Source: Chitinophaga pinensis (lineage in GTDB: Bacteria > Bacteroidota > Bacteroidia > UKL13-3). From it: a stretch of 64,000 bases of DNA. Below are positions 2,158 to 13,594 of the stretch, one piece after another. The notes below the pieces were generated by a model. It was not told where the DNA came from. It did not search any database and worked only from the letters and a program-made list of their open reading frames with translations. The translations under genes and the position numbers were made by a program. The stretch spans positions 50,180-114,179 of the forward strand of contig CAMBSD010000009.1 in NCBI GenBank assembly GCA_945870425.1, read 5' to 3'. Within the stretch, counting starts at the first letter, position 1. Every line of letters begins with the position of its first letter.

Positions 2158-3069
2158 CTAGTTCTTCAGCCACTTTAAAAAGAAAGGCAGTCTATTTAAT
2201 TTTAGTCGGTAATAATTAACCTTGTCAGAACCAAAACCTTTAAAAAATCTGGCTATGCTTTCAATTTCTGAGCCCTCAAAATCGAGAAACATATTGTGCC
2301 CTGCAAACTGATAGATGATATTATCAAACAAGAAATACATGGCACCATATTCTCTACCTAATTCATTGCCAGTTCCTATCATAAAAATCAATCTATTCTT
2401 GTAAGTTAGAAAGGCTACACTCGCAATCATGTCATTGTTTTTGGTGAATATGCCCTTTGAAAGCAACAATCCACGCTGATGAGCCTTTTCGAAAATCTTA
2501 ACCAAACTTTCATAGTTTTTTTCTTTCACACCTTTGGTTGAAAGGCCCTTATTTAGTTTATAAAATGCTACCACATCTGCATATGGAACAGTTTTTATTT
2601 CAAGGTCGAATCTCTTGGCTTTCTTAAGGTTTCTTTTAGTGTGAGATTCGTAGTTTTTCTGAATTTTATCGTAGTTTTTATCTAAATCTAGCAAGAAGTT
2701 TTTACGTTTTCTCAACTTCACTTTCAAATCGAGTATTTGATTTTGCTCGTTTAGATTTAAGTCAATGTATTTAAATCTTTTGGGTATAGCATGAACAAAT
2801 GAAATCATCATTTCTTGAGACAATTCATACTTAGCAAAAATGCCTAATTGTTGTGTAAAAAAAGGCTGATAGGCATATTTGATAAAATATTTTGTGGCAT
2901 GAGGCAAAGGCATTACAGCTCTGTAGTCGTCCATTACCAAAGCATCCCAACCAGGGCAAGCCGTATCTAAAAACCAAGAACAGCCATATACAAGTGGGTT
3001 AATAGCTTGTTCCATACACAAATCCCACTTGCCTTTGTCTATTTCAGTATGTTTTAGGTAATGTATCAC
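2158..3069 (-). CDS. hypothetical protein, possibly GNAT/FemAB-like acyltransferase fold
   Basis: 303 aa. The C-terminal region (LIFMIGTGNELGREYGAMYFLFDNIIYQFAG...) resembles CelD/BioF2-like GNAT domains. Weak assignment. Confidence 0.35.
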   Translation of the reverse strand: MIHYLKHTEIDKGKWDLCMEQAINPLVYGCSWFLDTACPGWDALVMDDYRAVMPLPHATKYFIKYAYQPFFTQQLGIFAKYELSQEMMISFVHAIPKRFKYIDLNLNEQNQILDLKVKLRKRKNFLLDLDKNYDKIQKNYESHTKRNLKKAKRFDLEIKTVPYADVVAFYKLNKGLSTKGVKEKNYESLVKIFEKAHQRGLLLSKGIFTKNNDMIASVAFLTYKNRLIFMIGTGNELGREYGAMYFLFDNIIYQFAGHNMFLDFEGSEIESIARFFKGFGSDKVNYYRLKLNRLPFFLKWLKN

Positions 3070-3322
3070 TTCGGGCGAAAATAGAGAAAATTTCGAAAGT
3101 GTGGCAAACCCCCTTCAGGCGATGGAGGTAAAGCTAGCGTAAGGCAAGGTAACAGACGGATAAGTTATTATTTAAGTTTTACATTAGATCTATGTTCACC
3201 TCTGTTATTCTAAAATGAATGAATTCTAAGCAAACCTTTCCTGTTTCTTATTGTTTCGATAAAATAATATTCACACTGAGGCAACCTTTTTACAAAAGCA
3301 CGTCTATATAGCAGTAAAAGGA

Positions 3323-3880
3323 ATGAAAGACTTTACCGAGCAGGAAATCATTTTAGGATGTGTAAAGGAAGACAGTCGATTTCAGCGATTGCTTTTTGAA
3401 AAGTACTACTCCAAAATGTTTGCTATTTGTATAAGGTTTTCGCAAAATGAAGAGGAAGCAAAAAATATTTTACAAGAAGGATTTATAAAAGCTTTTGAAG
3501 GGATAAAAAAGTTTAAAGCTGAAAGTAGTCTTAATACATGGTTAAGCAGAATTATGGTTAATCATTCCATTGACTGCTTGAAGAATCGAAACAAAAATTT
3601 GTTTTCATCCATTAGTGAAAATATGCTCACGATACCTGATTCAACTGAATTTGAAGAAGAATTAGTTAAAGATCTTTCACCAGAAGAGGCTCTGGATTTA
3701 CTTCAAAAATTACCCGATGGATACCGAACCATCGTTAATTTATATGCAGTGGAAGGACTCAGCCATAAACAAATAGGTGAAAACCTTGGTATTTCGGAAG
3801 GGACATCAAAATCTCAGCTTTCAAAAGCTAGGACGTTTTTAAAAAAATTAGTTAATAACCTAAACACTTATGTTGTATAA
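3323..3880 (+). CDS. RNA polymerase ECF-type sigma-70 factor
   Basis: Region 2 (FEKYYSKMFAICIRF..EEEAKNILQEGFIKAF) and region 4 HTH (YRTIVNLYAVEGLSHKQIGENLGISEGTSKSQLSKARTFLKK). Confidence 0.85.
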   Translation: MKDFTEQEIILGCVKEDSRFQRLLFEKYYSKMFAICIRFSQNEEEAKNILQEGFIKAFEGIKKFKAESSLNTWLSRIMVNHSIDCLKNRNKNLFSSISENMLTIPDSTEFEEELVKDLSPEEALDLLQKLPDGYRTIVNLYAVEGLSHKQIGENLGISEGTSKSQLSKARTFLKKLVNNLNTYVV

Positions 3881-5177
3881 CAACGAAGATGAGTATTTAA
3901 AAATATTTGCTGGCAAAATTAGCAAGTTAAACCCGAGGCAGCCAAGCAGCGATGAATGGACTGCCTTTGAAATGGCTTATCGTAAACATAAAAAACAAAA
4001 CAAAAAATGGCCATTGCTGCTATGGTTTGGCATTTTCTCTATGTTATGTGTGGGTCTGATTTATTTTTCAAATAATCAAAAAATTTCCATTGAAAAAGCA
4101 ATAGGAAATAACAGTTTAAAGGCTACATCTGAAAATAACGCAACAATAAATAAAAATACGAATAAAAAATTAATTGGAAATACTACCACTAAAGCTCAAA
4201 ATTTAAATCAAAATAAGGTTATAGATAGAAATGTTTCAGACTATGAAAACAAATCAAAACAAATTGAGAAATTGAAAAATCCTTTAAATAAAAAAGAAAT
4301 AATAAAAGTTTTGTCTAAGGTAGAACTATTATCTGAATCAAATACAAATAAGCCAGATGTAAAACTTAATGATAACATTTTGTTTGAACTAACTAGTCTA
4401 AAATTAAAGTCTTTTCAAATTTCAACTCCTCTAAAGAAAATAATTACAAGTACAAAGCCGACAAACAATGCGATAAATTCTATAAAAACAAATGTTTCGA
4501 ACAACATAACAAAATCAAGTCAAATTGCAAAATATTTTGAATTAGGAATATGTATTCAAAATAATAATTTCAAACAACTTGATTACCCATCTGATCAATT
4601 TTTTAAAGGAGTTGGATTGAATGTTGGTATGCATTTACAAAACAATTGGAGTATCAATTTAGGTATAAGCGCCTTGTATTTAAACCAGGTAAAAATAGAT
4701 AAGTTTGTTTTTCAAACAGAAGAACAACAAATAGAAAGAATCGATACTACCATAAAATATAACAATACTTACAACAGATTGATGATGGAGTTTGATACTG
4801 TTTTGAGTTATAAAAATGTGAATCATGAAGGTAGTTCCATCTATAAAAACGACATTGTATTTATACACTTACCATTTCAAGTTCGATATCATATTGGCAA
4901 TGAAAAACGAAGTGTTTATGTTGCAATTGGAGCATTAGGAACTATTACTTACCAATCACAAAACATTACGAAAAATATAGGTTTAAGTAATGAGGGTAAT
5001 CAATCTAAAGATACTTACAGCTTTATGTTTGCACCTACAATAGGATTGGGATGCCACCAAAAAATCTATAAAAATTGGGCACTTCATTTGGCTTCAAATT
5101 ACTCCAAATATTTAAATAGTAATCTTAATCAAACAAATACTTTTCAATTACAAACCGGTTTAAAATATAATTTCTAA
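3870..5177 (+). CDS. putative anti-sigma factor fused to an Asn/Lys-rich linker and a C-terminal outer-membrane beta-barrel-like domain
   Basis: Overlaps the sigma gene by 11 nt. It has a short cytoplasmic N-terminus, one TM helix (WPLLLWFGIFSMLCVGLIYF), a ~150-aa N/K-rich low-complexity stretch, and a C-terminal ~220 aa with alternating-hydrophobic beta-strand pattern ending in ...LKYNF. Confidence 0.5.
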   Translation: MLYNNEDEYLKIFAGKISKLNPRQPSSDEWTAFEMAYRKHKKQNKKWPLLLWFGIFSMLCVGLIYFSNNQKISIEKAIGNNSLKATSENNATINKNTNKKLIGNTTTKAQNLNQNKVIDRNVSDYENKSKQIEKLKNPLNKKEIIKVLSKVELLSESNTNKPDVKLNDNILFELTSLKLKSFQISTPLKKIITSTKPTNNAINSIKTNVSNNITKSSQIAKYFELGICIQNNNFKQLDYPSDQFFKGVGLNVGMHLQNNWSINLGISALYLNQVKIDKFVFQTEEQQIERIDTTIKYNNTYNRLMMEFDTVLSYKNVNHEGSSIYKNDIVFIHLPFQVRYHIGNEKRSVYVAIGALGTITYQSQNITKNIGLSNEGNQSKDTYSFMFAPTIGLGCHQKIYKNWALHLASNYSKYLNSNLNQTNTFQLQTGLKYNF

Positions 5178-5189
5178 AAAACAAAGAAT

Positions 5190-7448
5190 ATGAAAAATAA
5201 CGATTTAAAATCCATGATGAGCAAGAAGCTTGCATTAATGCTTCAACTTATTCTGCTATCATTCACAACAGTTTTGGCTCAATCTTGCCTTCCTAAATTT
5301 GACTATTACAAATCAGCCAAAAACATCGTATTTGTAAACCAATCAACAACTCCATTTGGTTTAGGCAACTATATTTGGAATTTTGGTGATGGCACTCCCT
5401 TAACTATTAACAACGAACATCAATTACACCACAAGTATGCCCAAACAGGCAGTTATAAAGTATGTCTTATAGATAGTTTTTGCCCAACAAATACTATGTT
5501 TTGCGATAGCATAAAAGTGGAAAATAGTAAAGAGGTTCAGGCTAGGTTTACTCATCAGGATTTCGGCAATGGATCTTTTATTTTCTTAAACTCAAGCAGT
5601 GCATCTTTATATCCAATTATTAGTTATCAGTGGGATTTTGGTGATGGTAACTTTAGTAATGACAGGGATGTAAAACACAATCATCACTCATCAGGACAAT
5701 ATATTGTTAGTCTGACAGTTTTAGATAGTGGTAATAATTTCGATATTTTTTACGACACAGTGAATACTTCAGTAATAGCTCCCTGCTATGCCGACTTTAA
5801 TTTTCAATATGTAAACAACCAGTTTGAATTTCAAAATCTTAGTTCTAGCCCAGACAGCATAGTAAGTTACCAATGGTATTTTGGAGATGCATCGAATGTT
5901 AATACGCAAGCCAATCCAACACATAGTTATAATGCTATTGGAAATTATACAGTTACTTTGGTAATGAAAAGCGCAACATGCAGCGACACCATTCAAAAAA
6001 CAATTTCTCAACCTGACACAGCATTATGCAAAATCAATTTAAGCAGCGCAATAAATTTCCAAAAAGTATTATTTACGGCTAAGTCAAATTCACCTGACCC
6101 CATTTTGGATAAATTCATAATTGATTATGGAGATAATAACCAAGAATTTATGGAAACCAATAGCATTTCACATATTTATAATGATACTGGGGTGTATAGA
6201 GTTTGCGTTCAGTCGTTTGTTAATCTTTGTGGGGTTGATCTTATTCAATGTGATACCATAAGAATTTCAAGTCTAACAGCCATTTGCAAAGCTGGTTTCG
6301 AGCTTTATGATTACGAATACACAGCTTCACTATACAATTCATCAATTGCTTATGGAAGTTCGGCACCTACTAACATAACCATTAATTGGGGAGATGGATT
6401 GATTTATTCGGGAACAGACAGTTTAGGCGTATTTAACCATACTTATGCCAATGAAGGTAGTTATAATGTTACTTTAACAATGAATAATTTAGGGGGCTGT
6501 AGTGACTCATTAACTAAAATTGTAAGTGTTGGACCAAACTATGTGCTAAGCGGAAAAATAACACAAGGAGGTTTACCTGCTTATTATGCTGGGGTATATA
6601 TTTATAGTTACGACTCAACATCTGGCTTATTATACAAAAGCACTTATACAAGCACGGACAATAACGGAAATTATGAGATAAAACTCAAAAAAGGTTATTA
6701 TCTGGTACAAGCGGATTTTGCTTTTGATCCTTTCAATAATGGATTTTATTTACCAACCTATTATAAAAATAAATTGAATTGGGATTTGGCAGATGTTCTT
6801 TATCTTCAAGCCAACCGAAGTGGCATTGATATTGACCTAATACCATATATTTATGACTCTACAGGCAACGGTAGCATTTCAGGTTTTGTTAAATATGGGA
6901 CGGGTGTGGTTGATCAAAATGGACCAATACAAGAAGGTAAACCTGCAGAAAAAATGTTAGTTTATTTAGTAGATGCAAGTGGCAAAACTGTAGCATATAC
7001 ACACACAAATACAGAAGGCCTTTTTGATTTCGGAAAAGTACCAATGGGTAATTACAAAGTATGGGGCGAAATGGCTGGAAAGCAAACTTTACCTGCCCAA
7101 GCCTCTATTAATAGTGCTGTAAATAATGTTTCTGGCATCAAAATAATTATTGGTAAAAACAGTTTGACAAGTTCAATTGGCCAGACAGCTAATATCATTG
7201 AACCTATTGAAGCCTCGATATATCCAAATCCAAGCAAAGGTCTTTTGAATATAGAATGTGCTAGCAAAAATTTAAGTTCAGTTCAGGTTTTTGATATAAC
7301 AGGACAACTAATACTTGAAAGCACTAATGAAAATGAAAATTCAAAAATGAGTTTAGATATTTCAAATAATAAAAATGGTTTGTATATAATTAAAATCAAT
7401 TCGGTTGAGGGAAACAGCATCATCAAAAAAGTTCTTAAACAAGACTAA
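5190..7448 (+). CDS. PKD-domain surface protein with T9SS type-A C-terminal sorting domain
   Basis: Signal peptide. Five PKD-like units (WNFGDGTP, WDFGDGNFS, WYFGDASN, DYGDNN, NWGDG). C-terminal 'IYPNPSKGLLNIE...VFDITGQLILES...NGLYIIKINSVEGNSIIKKVLKQD'. Confidence 0.8.
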   Translation: MKNNDLKSMMSKKLALMLQLILLSFTTVLAQSCLPKFDYYKSAKNIVFVNQSTTPFGLGNYIWNFGDGTPLTINNEHQLHHKYAQTGSYKVCLIDSFCPTNTMFCDSIKVENSKEVQARFTHQDFGNGSFIFLNSSSASLYPIISYQWDFGDGNFSNDRDVKHNHHSSGQYIVSLTVLDSGNNFDIFYDTVNTSVIAPCYADFNFQYVNNQFEFQNLSSSPDSIVSYQWYFGDASNVNTQANPTHSYNAIGNYTVTLVMKSATCSDTIQKTISQPDTALCKINLSSAINFQKVLFTAKSNSPDPILDKFIIDYGDNNQEFMETNSISHIYNDTGVYRVCVQSFVNLCGVDLIQCDTIRISSLTAICKAGFELYDYEYTASLYNSSIAYGSSAPTNITINWGDGLIYSGTDSLGVFNHTYANEGSYNVTLTMNNLGGCSDSLTKIVSVGPNYVLSGKITQGGLPAYYAGVYIYSYDSTSGLLYKSTYTSTDNNGNYEIKLKKGYYLVQADFAFDPFNNGFYLPTYYKNKLNWDLADVLYLQANRSGIDIDLIPYIYDSTGNGSISGFVKYGTGVVDQNGPIQEGKPAEKMLVYLVDASGKTVAYTHTNTEGLFDFGKVPMGNYKVWGEMAGKQTLPAQASINSAVNNVSGIKIIIGKNSLTSSIGQTANIIEPIEASIYPNPSKGLLNIECASKNLSSVQVFDITGQLILESTNENENSKMSLDISNNKNGLYIIKINSVEGNSIIKKVLKQD

Positions 7449-7471
7449 TGTATGATTGATTGTGAAAAATT

Positions 7472-7498
7472 GGGCTACCTACATGGTGGCCCTTTTTT
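7472..7498 (+). terminator. rho-independent terminator
   Basis: GGGCTACC-N5-GGTGGCCC stem (one mismatch) followed by TTTTTTG, 24 nt after the stop codon. Confidence 0.5.
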
Positions 7499-7865
7499 GT
7501 TTACTATAATGGGATTTGATAACAGCAATGTGATGAAATTCTTTGAGGCAATAAAGACATTCAATTATCCTAAAAACACATTACCTACAGCATGTACTTA
7601 ACTAAATGCTCGATAAAGGATTGAGGTGGATACGCTCAACACCAACAATGACAAATTGTAAAAGCCAAAGGCTATCATATAGGCTAACTAGCGGTACGCT
7701 AGGAGCGCAGAAGAGCCACCCCAAGTCATTTCTGGTGGCATCAAGGGTAATCCTGTTTTAAACAAAATAAAAGCTCCAACGATATTCGCAAATAAACCAA
7801 TCATCGAATAATACTGATAAATCATAAATTATATTTTATACAAATATATTGTTACTCCTCTCCCA

Positions 7866-9320
7866 TCAAAAATACATCTTACACACCGCTATCCCAGCCA
7901 ACACACAAACCAAATCCACCAAAAGCATAATGCTTAAAGTGTAACGTGAATCTTTGATATTAACTGAACCAAAATACAAAGCCACTACATAAAAAGTGGT
8001 TTCTGCAGCTCCCTGAAACAAGCATGATAGTTGCCCCGTAAGGCTATCAGCCCCGTATGTTTTCATGGCATCTAACATAAAACCTCGTGAACCTCCAGCA
8101 CTAAATGGTCGCATTATGGCAACAGGTATGGCATTGATAATTTGTGGGTCCACTTGAAAAACAGTCAACACCTTATTGATACCGCTCATTACAATAAACA
8201 TCAAACCTGAATTACGAAAAATACTCAAGGCAACCAGCATGGCCACCATATAAGGTAAAACCCTAACACCTGTCGTAAATCCATCTTTAGCACCATTCAC
8301 AAACGAATCGAAAATATTGGTTTCGTTGGCCTTAAAAACCTTTTCATGAAGTATGCTATAGGCTACTATTGCTAGGATAATAAACAATAATACTCCATTA
8401 CTGAGGTTACCCGTAAAATGGAATTTCTCAATTCCATTCAATTGGTTTACATAATATAAAATGAATCCAATCAATGCGCTCACGGATGTAATAAAGGCTA
8501 GTATCACCCAATTCACTAGATTGATGCGTTGTTTGATACTTACAAAAATTAAAGCCGCAAGGGTACCAATGAAAGATGTAATGATGCATGGAAGCATAAT
8601 ATCCGAAGGGTTTGCGGCATTCTGTGCCGCTCTATAACCAATGATGGATGTGGGAATAAGTGTTAAACCCGCTGCATGCAGACACAAAAACATAATTTGG
8701 CTATTGCTAGCCTTCTCTTTATCTTCATTTACATCCTGCATGCTTTCCATAGCCTTTAAACCAAAGGGTGTTGCTGCATTATCAAGGCCTAAAAAATTAG
8801 CTGCAAAATTCATTGTCATAAAGCCATAAGCTGCATGTCCTTTAGGCAATTCGGGAAATATGCGCACAAAAAAGGGTGTTAAAACTTTGGCCAATTTGGT
8901 AATGGCATTCGAATCACTCAACAAATGAAGCAAACCACAAAAGAAGGTAAGATAACCAATCAAGGGTAACCAAATATCCATAATGGCACTTTTGCAAGTT
9001 GGGAAAATCCCATCAGCCGATTGTTTTCCAATACAAACCTGAATGGTACCATTGTCTAATGATTGGTACAATGTATCGTTTTGCAAATAACCTGTGGGTT
9101 TATTCGCCAAAATCTTTGCATACAAGGCCGTGTCTTGAGTTTGAAAGCGCGTGGCAGGAAACTCAGCACTTACCAATGCATCATTTTGTTTGCCATTCAC
9201 CATTTGCGAAAGCGTATACATTTGCCCCGTAAACATCATGTAAAAAATATATACAATGCTGAGGGCGATGATATAAGACCAAAATCTGCTTAGTGCCATA
9301 AGAATAATTTTAAGTAGCAA
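7866..9320 (-). CDS. nucleoside-recognition (Gate) domain membrane protein, SpmA/SpmB-like fusion
   Basis: 484 aa, polytopic, two Gate-like halves. C-terminus 'TFYVVALYFGSVNIKDSRYTLSIMLLVDLVCVLAGIAV' resembles SpmB. Confidence 0.45.
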   Translation of the reverse strand: MLLKIILMALSRFWSYIIALSIVYIFYMMFTGQMYTLSQMVNGKQNDALVSAEFPATRFQTQDTALYAKILANKPTGYLQNDTLYQSLDNGTIQVCIGKQSADGIFPTCKSAIMDIWLPLIGYLTFFCGLLHLLSDSNAITKLAKVLTPFFVRIFPELPKGHAAYGFMTMNFAANFLGLDNAATPFGLKAMESMQDVNEDKEKASNSQIMFLCLHAAGLTLIPTSIIGYRAAQNAANPSDIMLPCIITSFIGTLAALIFVSIKQRINLVNWVILAFITSVSALIGFILYYVNQLNGIEKFHFTGNLSNGVLLFIILAIVAYSILHEKVFKANETNIFDSFVNGAKDGFTTGVRVLPYMVAMLVALSIFRNSGLMFIVMSGINKVLTVFQVDPQIINAIPVAIMRPFSAGGSRGFMLDAMKTYGADSLTGQLSCLFQGAAETTFYVVALYFGSVNIKDSRYTLSIMLLVDLVCVLAGIAVCKMYF

Positions 9321-9540: not shown

Positions 9541-10887
9541 ATGCAAACTTTTATTATGGTTGCCCAACTTATTACCGCACTATCTATATTGGTGGTAATT
9601 CACGAGTTAGGACACTTTTTAGCTGCTAAATTATTCAAAATCAGAGTTGATAAATTTTACCTCTTTTTCGATTTTCTTTTCCCAATGCCCAATATGCTTA
9701 AATTCTCTTTGTTTAAAATCAAAAAAGGAGATACTGAATATGGATTAGGTTGGTTCCCAATGGGAGGTTATGTACAAATAGCTGGAATGGTTGACGAAAA
9801 CATGAATACCGAACAATTGGCTCAACCTGCCGAACCATGGGAATTCAGAAGCAAACCAGCTTGGCAACGAATGATTGTGATGCTTGGTGGTATTATTTTT
9901 AATGTAGCTTTAGGTGTTTTCATTTTTGCCATGATGAGCTATTACTATGGCGAAAGATTTACCAAAAACGAATCTATCAAAAATGGTGTAGTGGCAAGTG
10001 CATTGGCCAAAGAAGTTGGTTTTGAAACAGGCGACAAATTAGTTTCGGTAAATGGAAAACCAATCGTTCATTTCGAAAAAGCATTTGGTAGCGATGAGTT
10101 ATTGGGCGACAAAACTGTTTATACGGTTGACCGTAATGGCGAAAGCAAGCAAATTGAATTGCCTGCTACTTTTCTTTCAAAATTTTCCGAAAACACAAAA
10201 GCAGAGTTTCTAACCCCTCGTCAAACTTTTTTCATAGCAGACTTGGTGCCGAGCGCCAATGCCGAAAAAGCAGGTTTGAAAGTGAATGATGTGATTTTAG
10301 CTGTTGATACCAACAAATTTGTATTCTTTGATGAGTTTCAACAATTGTTGCAAAACAAGAAAAACACAAAAAGTATGTTTACCATTCTTCGTAATACTGA
10401 TACACTAAGATTAGAAGTAGCTATTGATGAAAGTGGTAAAGTAGGCTTCAGACCTGATACCAAAGATTTTGCTTATGATACCATTCAATATGGATTTTTT
10501 ACATCATTGCCTGCTGGTTGGAACAAGGCAGTTGAAACCATCAGCAGTCAAATAAAAGGTTGGGGTAAAATTTTCAATGGAGATATCGCAGTAAACAAAG
10601 CTGTTCAAGGCCCTATTGGTATTGCCAAGTTTTATGGCGGTGAGTGGATTTGGAGTAGATTTTGGTTATTTACAGCGCTTATCTCATTAGGTTTGGCATT
10701 TGCTAACATATTACCCATTCCTGCTTTGGATGGAGGACATGTTGTGTTATTAATCATTGAAATGGTTACGGGCAAACCAATAAGTATTAAGATACAAGAA
10801 CGTGTTCAAACTGCAGGTATGATTATTTTATTATCTCTTATGGTGCTCATATTTGGTAATGATATTTGGCAATTGATAAAAAAATAA
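9541..10887 (+). CDS. rseP: RIP zinc metalloprotease RseP (site-2 protease)
   Basis: N-terminal HELGHF zinc motif, PDZ region, C-terminal 'ANILPIPALDGGHV' (LDG motif). Confidence 0.9.
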   Translation: MQTFIMVAQLITALSILVVIHELGHFLAAKLFKIRVDKFYLFFDFLFPMPNMLKFSLFKIKKGDTEYGLGWFPMGGYVQIAGMVDENMNTEQLAQPAEPWEFRSKPAWQRMIVMLGGIIFNVALGVFIFAMMSYYYGERFTKNESIKNGVVASALAKEVGFETGDKLVSVNGKPIVHFEKAFGSDELLGDKTVYTVDRNGESKQIELPATFLSKFSENTKAEFLTPRQTFFIADLVPSANAEKAGLKVNDVILAVDTNKFVFFDEFQQLLQNKKNTKSMFTILRNTDTLRLEVAIDESGKVGFRPDTKDFAYDTIQYGFFTSLPAGWNKAVETISSQIKGWGKIFNGDIAVNKAVQGPIGIAKFYGGEWIWSRFWLFTALISLGLAFANILPIPALDGGHVVLLIIEMVTGKPISIKIQERVQTAGMIILLSLMVLIFGNDIWQLIKK

Positions 10888-10942: not shown

Positions 10943-11065
10943 ATTTCCATTTTATTTATGAGTTTCCTAAGACATTATCTATAAAGCTTAAATCGGGTTA
11001 TTACACAAAAGGTTTTGGAATATTAATGTAAAAGAACACATTTGTTATTACACAACAACTTAAAT

Positions 11066-13594
11066 ATGCAAAAATTAACAATTCTATCTCTAAGCATTTT
11101 GCTACTTGCTGCTTGCTCGGGAACAAAAAAGAGTACATCAGCTGCTGCTACAACTCCAACAAGTAGCATTTCAGATAAAGTAAAAGCTTGTAAAAAAAAT
11201 GAAGGTCTATTTACATTATTCCAAGATACTGTAAATGGCAGTGTTTATATGCTTTTGAAAAAAGAGCAGCTTGAAAAAGAGTATATCTATTTTTCATATA
11301 GTGCAGATGGTGTAGTGGCAGCAGGTCATTTCAGAGGAAGTTATAGAGATAACAAAGTATTTACTATAAAAAGATATTTTGATAAAATTGAATTCATAGT
11401 TCAAAACACAGGTTACTATTTTGATAAAAGCAACCCAGTTAGCAAAGCGGCAAATGCCAATATAAGCCCTGCTATTTTGGTTAATCAAAAAATCGTAGCA
11501 GAGGATGTTAAAAAAGGTGAAATATTACTTGATGCTAGTTCAATATTTTTGAGTGAAAGCATGTCTCAAGTTAAACCTACTCCATTCTTCGGATTGCCTC
11601 CAGGTTTTCAAATGTTCTCTTTAGGTGGCCTCAGCCGCGAAAAAACCAAGTTTGTAAGTTTGAAAAATTATGAAAAAAACACAGATATCGTAGTAGAATA
11701 TGTGTATGATAATCCTATGCCAACTGTGGGTGGTGGCAAAGAGGTAACAGATGAAAGAGCGGTTAGTATTTTCTTACAACATTCATTAATCGAAGCTCCT
11801 AAAAACAATTTCAAACCTCGTTTTGATGACCCTCGTATTGGCTATTTTAGCGAAGAAGTGGAAGATATGACTACAACCAATGCTACAGCTTATCATGATT
11901 TGATTCATAGATGGCATTTGGTAAAAAAAGACACGAATGCATCCTTATCAGAGCCCGTTGAACCTATTGTATGGTGGATTGAAAACACTACACCTTATGA
12001 ATTTAGAGCTACCATAAAAGAAGCAGGTGAAAAATGGAACTTAGCCTTTGAAAAAGCTGGTTTCAAAAATGCTGTAATTATTAAAGAACAACCTGATACC
12101 GCAACATGGGATGCAGGTGATATAAGATACAATGTGTTGCGCTGGACAAGTTCACCTCAGCCACCTTTCGGAGGCTATGGACCTAGTTTTGTTGACCCTC
12201 GTACAGGACAAATATTAGGAGCTGATATTATGTTGGAGTATATTTTTGTTACGAATAGACTTAAGCAAGAAGAACTATTTGATGCCAATAGTAGCCTTAA
12301 CAAACCAAACCCAATCAAATATAATAACTACTGCGATGCAAGTAATTACTTACATCAAACTTCATTGTTTGGTTTAAATGCGCTGCAAGCCAATGATATT
12401 AGTGATGTTGAAAAACGCGATTACATTAAACAATCTTTATACTACTTGGTGCTTCACGAAATGGGACATACCATGGGTTTGAATCATAATATGAAAGCAA
12501 GTCAAATGCTTAAACCAGCATTAATTCATAACAAAGAATTGATAAGAAACATTGGTTTGACAGCATCCGTAATGGATTATCCAGCAGTGAATTTATCATT
12601 AGATAAAAGCAAACAAGGCGATTATTTTACAACCCGACCGGGGCCTTATGATTTATGGGCAATTGAGTTTGGTTATTCTCAAGGATTGAATGATGAAGAT
12701 AAAGAAAAAGAGCGCATTGAAAAAATACTTTCACGGTCATCAGATACTTTACTGATTTTTGGTAACGATGCTGATGATATGCGTTCAGCTGGTAATGGAA
12801 TTGACCCCCGTATCAATGTGAATGATATGAGCGGAGATGCAATTGGGTATGGAATTGATCGTATCAAATTATCAAACCAACTATTTGGAAAAATTAAAAC
12901 CAAATACAGCAAAACAGGTCATAGCTATCAAGAACTTCGAATGGCTTATGGCATGACCCAAAGTGAATATTTCAACCAAGTAAATGTTATTTCAAGATAT
13001 ATTGGTGGTGTATATGTTGATAGGAGCTTTGTAGGACAAGCAGGTGCCAGCAAACCATTAATTCCAGTTGATTACAAAGAACAAAAAAGAGCTATGGAGG
13101 CCTTGAGTAATTTTGCTTTTGCTTCTAATGCATTCGCTGTTCAAAACGATTTATACAATTATCTACAAACACAACGAAGAGGTTTTAACTTTTTTGGTAC
13201 CAACGAAGATCCAAAAATTCATGCTCGTATAGTTTCATATCAAAGTATGATTTTGTCACACTTGCTCAATACAACCACATTAAAAAGAATGACCGATAGC
13301 AGGTTATATGGAAACAAGTATAGTGTCTTGGAAATGATGAACGATTTGACTAAAGCCTGCTTTGCCTCTGACGCGAGTAATCCGAACACATTTAGGCAAA
13401 ACCTTCATACACTTTACACTGAAAGATTAATATCGATATTTAAGTCTGGAGCCTACGATGCTCAATCACAAGCTGCAGCCTTAGCTCAATTAAAACAAAT
13501 ATTGAATTTTTGTAAAGCTGGAAGTAATGAGGAGGCCAAAGCTCATTATGCCAATCTAAAATTAAAAATTGATCAAGCAATGGCTCTAAAATAG
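11066..13594 (+). CDS. zinc-dependent metalloprotease lipoprotein (HEXXH)
   Basis: Lipoprotein signal 'MQKLTILSLSILLLAACSG'. 'VLHEMGHTMGLNHN' zinc-binding motif. Start moved to the Met preceding the lipobox; the ORF track begins at 11042. Confidence 0.75.
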   Translation: MQKLTILSLSILLLAACSGTKKSTSAAATTPTSSISDKVKACKKNEGLFTLFQDTVNGSVYMLLKKEQLEKEYIYFSYSADGVVAAGHFRGSYRDNKVFTIKRYFDKIEFIVQNTGYYFDKSNPVSKAANANISPAILVNQKIVAEDVKKGEILLDASSIFLSESMSQVKPTPFFGLPPGFQMFSLGGLSREKTKFVSLKNYEKNTDIVVEYVYDNPMPTVGGGKEVTDERAVSIFLQHSLIEAPKNNFKPRFDDPRIGYFSEEVEDMTTTNATAYHDLIHRWHLVKKDTNASLSEPVEPIVWWIENTTPYEFRATIKEAGEKWNLAFEKAGFKNAVIIKEQPDTATWDAGDIRYNVLRWTSSPQPPFGGYGPSFVDPRTGQILGADIMLEYIFVTNRLKQEELFDANSSLNKPNPIKYNNYCDASNYLHQTSLFGLNALQANDISDVEKRDYIKQSLYYLVLHEMGHTMGLNHNMKASQMLKPALIHNKELIRNIGLTASVMDYPAVNLSLDKSKQGDYFTTRPGPYDLWAIEFGYSQGLNDEDKEKERIEKILSRSSDTLLIFGNDADDMRSAGNGIDPRINVNDMSGDAIGYGIDRIKLSNQLFGKIKTKYSKTGHSYQELRMAYGMTQSEYFNQVNVISRYIGGVYVDRSFVGQAGASKPLIPVDYKEQKRAMEALSNFAFASNAFAVQNDLYNYLQTQRRGFNFFGTNEDPKIHARIVSYQSMILSHLLNTTTLKRMTDSRLYGNKYSVLEMMNDLTKACFASDASNPNTFRQNLHTLYTERLISIFKSGAYDAQSQAAALAQLKQILNFCKAGSNEEAKAHYANLKLKIDQAMALK

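Follow-up and report, generated by a model that had tools for sequence, protein, structure and literature searches.

A probable Dma-type ECF sigma/anti-sigma operon with a linked PKD-repeat protein gene in uncultured Bacteroidota

The Dma family of Bacteroidota represents a dual-membrane anti-sigma design (Pardue et al., 2024; PMC10927553), in which one protein combines an N-terminal sigma-binding region, a single transmembrane helix, a long disordered stretch and, at the C-terminus, a beta-barrel of eight strands. Each Dma gene adjoins that of an ECF21 sigma factor (ECF, extracytoplasmic function), and the family is restricted to Bacteroidota (PMC10927553). Members include Dma1/Das1 of B. thetaiotaomicron and Reo/EcfO of B. 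fragilis (PMC10927553, PMC13088901). Dma1 uses its N-terminus to bind Das1, and the full-length protein is found in total membranes, with C-terminal fragments in outer-membrane vesicles (PMC10927553). A 2026 follow-up restates the four-part definition and places Dma2 in a three-gene operon (PMC13088901). For the Dma systems published so far, neither the signal nor a partner at the surface is known to have been defined. Here we describe a locus in a 64-kb stretch of contig CAMBSD010000009.1 (the window, meaning the whole stretch analysed) that is probably a Dma-type ECF sigma/anti-sigma signalling operon. An earlier note on this DNA had proposed that one polypeptide bridges the inner and outer membranes; all of the computed evidence agrees with that prediction, and the dual-membrane design, though unusual, has been known since 2024, so this central claim is not new. 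The contribution of the locus is a subfamily that is compact and well conserved and comes from uncultured Bacteroidota, apparently of fresh water. Its linked partner carrying PKD repeats and a type IX secretion system (T9SS) sorting domain, its conserved hairpin tip and its clean candidate promoter are features that could help with the question of what Dma proteins sense, and in what way.

The locus consists of three genes, the second and third of which are referred to as open reading frames (ORFs) 2 and 3; protein lengths are in amino acids (aa).

3323..3880, plus strand: ECF sigma factor gene, 185 aa, with Pfam and NCBIfam matches
3870..5177, plus strand: predicted Dma-type anti-sigma factor gene (ORF2), 435 aa
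5190..7448, plus strand: secreted PKD-repeat/T9SS protein gene (ORF3), 752 aa

The ATG of ORF2 sits within the final 11 nucleotides (nt) of the sigma gene, and ORF2 and ORF3 are separated by 12 nt with no terminator between them. Because of this 11-nt overlap, the 12-nt gap and a terminator-like hairpin after ORF3, the three genes are read as one operon. The sigma/anti-sigma/PKD-T9SS order was kept in all 13 of the loci that were fetched (a few of them redundant), as was the 11-nt overlap; identity to the window across these loci is 78–94% for the sigma factor, 38–63% for the anti-sigma protein and 62–84% for the PKD/T9SS gene. The first gene encodes an ECF sigma factor, with Pfam matches to Sigma70_r2 (2.4e-12) and Sigma70_r4_2 (1.1e-15) and a score of 93 bits against TIGR02937 (sigma70-ECF; cut-off 42.9). 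Its best subfamily match is TIGR02985 (Sig70_bacteroi1), at 98 bits, below the 126-bit cut-off.

The ORF2 protein divides into four parts, one of which carries an additional conserved segment.

3870..4007, plus strand: residues 1–46, conserved cytoplasmic segment, presumed to bind the sigma factor (conservation, positive-inside rule)
4008..4070, plus strand: residues 47–67, single predicted inner-membrane helix, a signal anchor with the N-terminus inside (hydrophobicity)
4071..4514, plus strand: residues 68–215 (148 aa), predicted disordered Asn/Lys-rich periplasmic tether (model confidence, composition)
4515..5174, plus strand: residues 216–435, predicted eight-stranded outer-membrane beta-barrel with a C-terminal YNF beta-signal (Pfam, AlphaFold2)
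4722..4802, plus strand: residues 285–311, tip of the beta3-beta4 hairpin, presumed surface-exposed (conservation)

Residues 1–46 have a mean pairwise identity of 69% and are thus as conserved as the barrel. An AlphaFold2 model of the 435-aa protein, built on 14 homologues, places two helices here (6–20 and 27–43) at low predicted local distance difference test (pLDDT) values. A basic cluster, KHKKQNKK, stands directly ahead of the membrane helix, which reaches a Kyte-Doolittle value of 2.1 over 19 residues and is the sole such segment in the protein; AlphaFold2 predicts a helix at 47–78. There are six Lys or Arg among the 12 residues preceding the helix and two after it, a positive-inside bias shared with 40 relatives, and the N-terminus should therefore be cytoplasmic. 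The tether that follows is rich in Asn (18%) and Lys (17%) and is modelled at a pLDDT of about 22. Its mean pairwise identity is just 24%, compared with 64–69% for the domains on either side. Along the protein, the identity values of 69, 40, 24 and 64% for N-terminus, helix, tether and barrel form the pattern that a spacer between two functional ends should give.

The C-terminal domain is predicted to be an outer-membrane barrel. Residues 219–435 match Pfam OMP_b-brl with 31.0 bits, just over the gathering score of 28.7, and in the AlphaFold2 model the domain is all-beta (pLDDT about 80–89), with exactly eight strands assigned by DSSP. The protein ends in ...LQTGLKYNF, and the pattern ...Q.QTGL.YNF is invariant at the C-terminus of the homologues; an aromatic residue occurs within the last three positions in 29 of 41 relatives. 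The terminal YNF fits the aromatic C-terminal beta-signal of outer-membrane proteins. A soluble eight-stranded periplasmic barrel of the lipocalin, YceI or avidin-like kind, acting as the sensor of a single-membrane anti-sigma factor, is very improbable given the Pfam match above the gathering score and this C-terminal signature; furthermore, a sensor confined to the periplasm would not need a disordered tether of 148 residues.

An unusually long hairpin of roughly 40 residues is formed by strands beta3 (260–298) and beta4 (303–343) in the model. No other segment of the protein is as well conserved as its tip (mean pairwise identity 82%), in which the block IERIDTTIKYN..YNRLMM.DT is nearly invariant. 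Outer-membrane barrels as a rule keep their short turns and both termini in the periplasm; on that basis, the long hairpin should protrude from the cell surface.

Taken together, these predictions bear out what the earlier note had described. The sigma gene, the 11-nt overlap and the ORF coordinates match exactly, and the short cytoplasmic N-terminus with one inner-membrane helix, the Asn/Lys-rich spacer of about 150 residues and the outer-membrane-type barrel with a terminal Phe all reappear in the hydrophobicity, composition, domain and structure predictions.

The relationship to other Dma-like proteins was examined by profile comparison, using hhalign and a group of eight Dma-like proteins, about half of them of the OMP_b-brl_2 type and including a sigma-adjacent protein of Polaribacter. 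The barrel aligned to this group with 99.1% probability (E = 1.9e-18), and the first 75 residues, comprising the N-terminal segment and the membrane helix, with 93.6% (E = 2e-7). The shared N-terminal motif is ...P....W..(F/I)..., followed by a basic cluster and then the helix. On the strength of these two alignments, both ends of the 435-aa protein are homologous to sigma-adjacent proteins of the Dma-like class. The hairpin-tip block had no counterpart in the OMP_b-brl_2-type comparison group. The sigma factor is 37% identical to the one beside the Polaribacter OMP_b-brl_2 Dma-like protein. The locus is best placed as a divergent member of the Dma family, likened to Dma1 by its description and not by its sequence. 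The small size of its family (48 clusters, see below) and the different Pfam match suggest a subfamily separate from the Dma1 orthologue group (BT_4721, WP_008766767.1).

The Polaribacter locus belongs to a cultured flavobacterium, Polaribacter sp. IC073 (L014, 4497..6817), and encodes a sigma factor of 166 aa and an OMP_b-brl_2 Dma-like protein of 442 aa, followed by a 114-aa protein without a Pfam match. This organism could serve as a tractable comparison system.

The N-terminal evidence also bears on another account of ORF2, namely that it is an ordinary outer-membrane protein whose unusually long N-terminal export signal is removed, leaving a free barrel with no role in sigma control, and that its adjacency to the sigma gene is coincidental or purely transcriptional. 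A free barrel form does exist for Dma1, of which only C-terminal fragments were found in outer-membrane vesicles (PMC10927553), and the absence of a Pfam anti-sigma match in the N-terminal segment is in keeping with such an account. Nevertheless, an n-region of 46 residues is far beyond signal-peptide length, the helix (..GLIYFSNNQK) is not followed by a small-residue cleavage motif, and the 69% identity of residues 1–46 would be unexpected for a discarded leader. The 11-nt translational overlap with the sigma gene in all loci, together with the homology of the first 75 residues to other sigma-adjacent proteins of the same layout, likewise argues against this account, which we consider improbable.

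When a long gene is called across a low-complexity, A-rich linker, there is also the concern that a frameshift or assembly error has joined what are really two genes, one for a small anti-sigma factor and one for a porin, as such sequence is of the type where frameshift errors occur. No support for this was found. All 17 full-length homologues (432–446 aa, 38–96% identity), drawn from independent NCBI, ENA, JGI and Logan assemblies, keep the fused architecture in an uninterrupted frame. When 1.84 billion representative proteins were searched exhaustively with a profile, only 48 clusters were found at E ≤ 0.001, nearly all of them 390–510 aa long with the same layout. Among 41 relatives from this search that were tested, 18 carry OMP_b-brl_2 and 17 carry OMP_b-brl. 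Close members were confined to six metagenome-assembled genomes of uncultured Bacteroidota among 185,579 species-representative genomes, and the T9SS sorting domain of the neighbouring gene fits a Bacteroidota origin.

No split version of the anti-sigma protein was found; two short barrel-only hits were examined, and other short hits of 43–192 aa were not. The first of the two (L016) is explained by a 100-N scaffold gap with duplicated flanks at about 3910..4010, inside the orthologous anti-sigma gene, and the second (L017) by a gene that is open to the end of a 1.5-kb contig and thus truncated by the contig end. The earlier note's statement that these parts are separate genes in many Bacteroidota is therefore without support. 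Both grounds on which the earlier note would have given up its reading are excluded: a barrel is predicted for the C-terminal part, and the 17 full-length homologues rule out a frameshift fusion. Judging from the uninterrupted frame conserved in those homologues, we take the joining of N-terminus, helix, tether and barrel in one gene to be genuine, and the chance that it is an artefact to be negligible. The gap in L016 has also given rise to a truncated 265-aa gene call (P0004) in a public protein collection, which is an assembly artefact and not a split gene.

Upstream of the sigma gene, a conserved motif resembles a promoter, and the operon appears to be closed by a terminator.

3280..3306, plus strand: candidate ECF-type autoregulated promoter GGCAACC-N15-GTCTA, ending 16 nt before the sigma ATG
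7472..7502, plus strand: intrinsic-terminator-like hairpin (7472–7492) and T-run closing the operon

ECF promoters in general have a -35 element with AAC and a -10 element with GTC, and because GGCAACC-N15-GTCTA resembles this consensus we regard it as a candidate autoregulated ECF promoter. It matches once in the 64-kb window, where 0 matches are expected by chance; a search of the window for further copies found none. All 12 loci that include the upstream region contain exactly one copy at the same offset, and in the alignment the motif is invariant, while the intergenic DNA around it has diverged. The gene triad and the motif persist even where the genes on either side bear no relation to those flanking the operon in the window. 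At the other end of the operon, the hairpin has eight pairs, six of them G-C, followed by TTTTTTGTTT, and it is the highest-ranked terminator-like site within 3000..7900.

The promoter spacer also holds a small palindrome, CTTTT-N3-AAAAG (window 3285..3297), which lies at the same position in every locus; it may act as an operator or be no more than an A/T tract.

That the protein binds the sigma factor, sits in both membranes and is released by proteolysis, that the promoter is active, and what kind of signal is sensed, we infer from the published work on Dma1/Das1 and Reo/EcfO and from general ECF biology. By that analogy, the conserved cytoplasmic N-terminus of the 435-aa protein, 46 residues long, would keep the sigma factor at the inner membrane; the protein would cross that membrane once, span the periplasm with its disordered tether of about 150 residues and insert its C-terminal eight-stranded barrel in the outer membrane. 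A disturbance or ligand at the outer membrane or cell surface, likely sensed at the conserved tip of the beta3-beta4 hairpin, could then cause the tether and the membrane anchor to be cut by regulated proteolysis, the second cut probably being made by an RseP-type site-2 protease. The freed sigma factor would transcribe its own operon from the GGCAACC-N15-GTCTA promoter, and this induction would yield more of the co-transcribed PKD-repeat surface protein, which would be exported by the T9SS.

A number of points weigh against this Dma-type reading. The AlphaFold2 confidence of the N-terminal segment is low (pLDDT 40–59), and the segment has no match to any Pfam anti-sigma domain. None of 14 close members matches OMP_b-brl_2 (PF13568, E ≤ 0.1), and nine of the 14 match PF13505 instead, although the OMP_b-brl_2 match is an annotation detail of one member, Dma1, and not a family criterion. 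With just 16 nt between the putative -10 element and the ATG, the leader would be very short, and the conserved upstream block could be another kind of regulatory site. Lastly, the layout calls for a barrel to be assembled while tethered to the inner membrane, a difficulty that it shares with Dma1.

The third gene distinguishes this subfamily. The product of ORF3 has Pfam matches to PKD_4 (1.5e-43, five stretches), to CarboxypepD_reg-like domains and to Por_Secre_tail (7.4e-16), a type-A T9SS C-terminal sorting domain. A PKD gene also follows the distant anti-sigma relatives in L015 and L017 (about 22% and about 30% identity, respectively), and that of L017 is visibly homologous to ORF3. The earlier note had proposed a PKD-domain T9SS cargo as a plausible regulatory target; the domains were confirmed. 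Given the 12-nt gap, the lack of an intervening terminator and the conserved gene order, it is more apt to regard this gene as the third member of the operon, transcribed together with the other two, than as a target apart from it.

Some related loci encode another T9SS-sorted protein after the PKD gene (L001, 9789..11009, 406 aa; L002, 9922..11493, 523 aa). The window has no such gene.

The PKD gene is strictly linked to the anti-sigma gene even where the latter has fallen to about 22% identity, which raises the question of whether the PKD/T9SS protein is itself the sensing partner, with the hairpin tip monitoring its secretion or surface attachment and the module reporting the status of the cargo or of a ligand that the PKD protein has bound. 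The presumed surface-exposed tip, where conservation in the anti-sigma protein is highest, is missing in relatives without a PKD neighbour; in the Polaribacter relative neither the PKD gene nor the tip block is present. This support is purely correlative, the sequences are too few for co-variation analysis, and co-transcription is equally explained by the PKD protein being a mere regulated product; we therefore treat the PKD protein as sensing partner as a tentative and rather unlikely proposal. Similarly speculative, in our estimation, is the idea that the subfamily couples Dma-type trans-envelope signalling to type IX secretion, with the hairpin tip contacting the PKD cargo or a ligand captured by it, such that the sigma factor may be released by the secretion or occupancy state of the surface protein. 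If true, it would provide the first defined signal and partner for the Dma class.

Other genes lie around the operon. Divergent from the sigma gene is a 303-aa ORF (window 2158..3069, minus strand) without a Pfam match, whose position is conserved in the close loci L002 and L006; the distant loci L001 and L004 have ParA/ParB genes instead. A Gate-domain transporter follows the PKD gene in the window (7866..9320, minus strand). RseP-like site-2 proteases are the class of enzyme that would be expected to cleave anti-sigma factors within the membrane, and one is encoded 2 kb downstream of the operon (9541..10887, plus strand), with a Peptidase_M50 match (1e-51), PDZ domains and an HELGH motif. 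It is also found near the operon in the close relative L006 and not in L001 or L004. Since its proximity is not kept in the distant loci, it is probably just synteny, and we treat it as context only. Further along is an 850-aa DUF5117 and DUF4953 Met-zincin with a lipoprotein-like N-terminus (11042..13594, plus strand), apparently with no tie to the operon. The ORFs at 39.5–42 kb are not a second sigma pair, and a search of the 64-kb window for further Dma-like genes found none.

The fold of residues 216–435, compared with the help of Foldseek, resembles that of the small eight-stranded outer-membrane barrels OmpX, Ail, the transmembrane domain of OmpA, OmpW, NspA and TtoA, and its strands extending past the membrane recall OmpX and Ail in particular. 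However, those barrels are stand-alone proteins with cleavable signal peptides, and have neither an inner-membrane anchor nor a link to a sigma factor. As in the Fec system (FecA/FecR/FecI), a signal at the outer membrane or surface would reach an ECF sigma factor through regulated proteolysis and an anti-sigma factor anchored in the membrane. Fec needs TonB and divides the roles of outer-membrane receptor and anti-sigma factor between two proteins, whereas here a single polypeptide is predicted to take both parts, and it has no FecR or TonB-dependent receptor domain according to Pfam. Nor does it belong with anti-sigma factors of the FecR, RseA or zf-HC2 type by its domains, as FecR, RseA_N, zf-HC2 and RskA were sought and gave no Pfam or NCBIfam match at E ≤ 1.

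Closer parallels are found within the Dma family. The locus shares with Dma2 a three-gene operon of sigma factor, Dma protein and third gene; yet the third gene of the Dma2 operon is uncharacterised, while here it encodes a 752-aa PKD-repeat T9SS substrate, and Dma2 has been reported in the genus Bacteroides only. The similarity to Dma1 extends to a co-transcribed ECF sigma gene immediately upstream, a short cytoplasmic N-terminus, one transmembrane helix, a long disordered periplasmic region, an eight-stranded C-terminal barrel and a Bacteroidota host. The two differ in that the barrel of the window protein matches Pfam OMP_b-brl and that of Dma1 matches OMP_b-brl_2, and the roughly 40-residue beta3-beta4 hairpin with its conserved tip further sets the window protein apart from the OMP_b-brl_2-type Dma-like group. 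At 435 aa it is also shorter than Dma1, which runs at about 55 kDa, and its operon partner is a PKD/T9SS cargo where that of Dma1 is a NigD-like lipoprotein.

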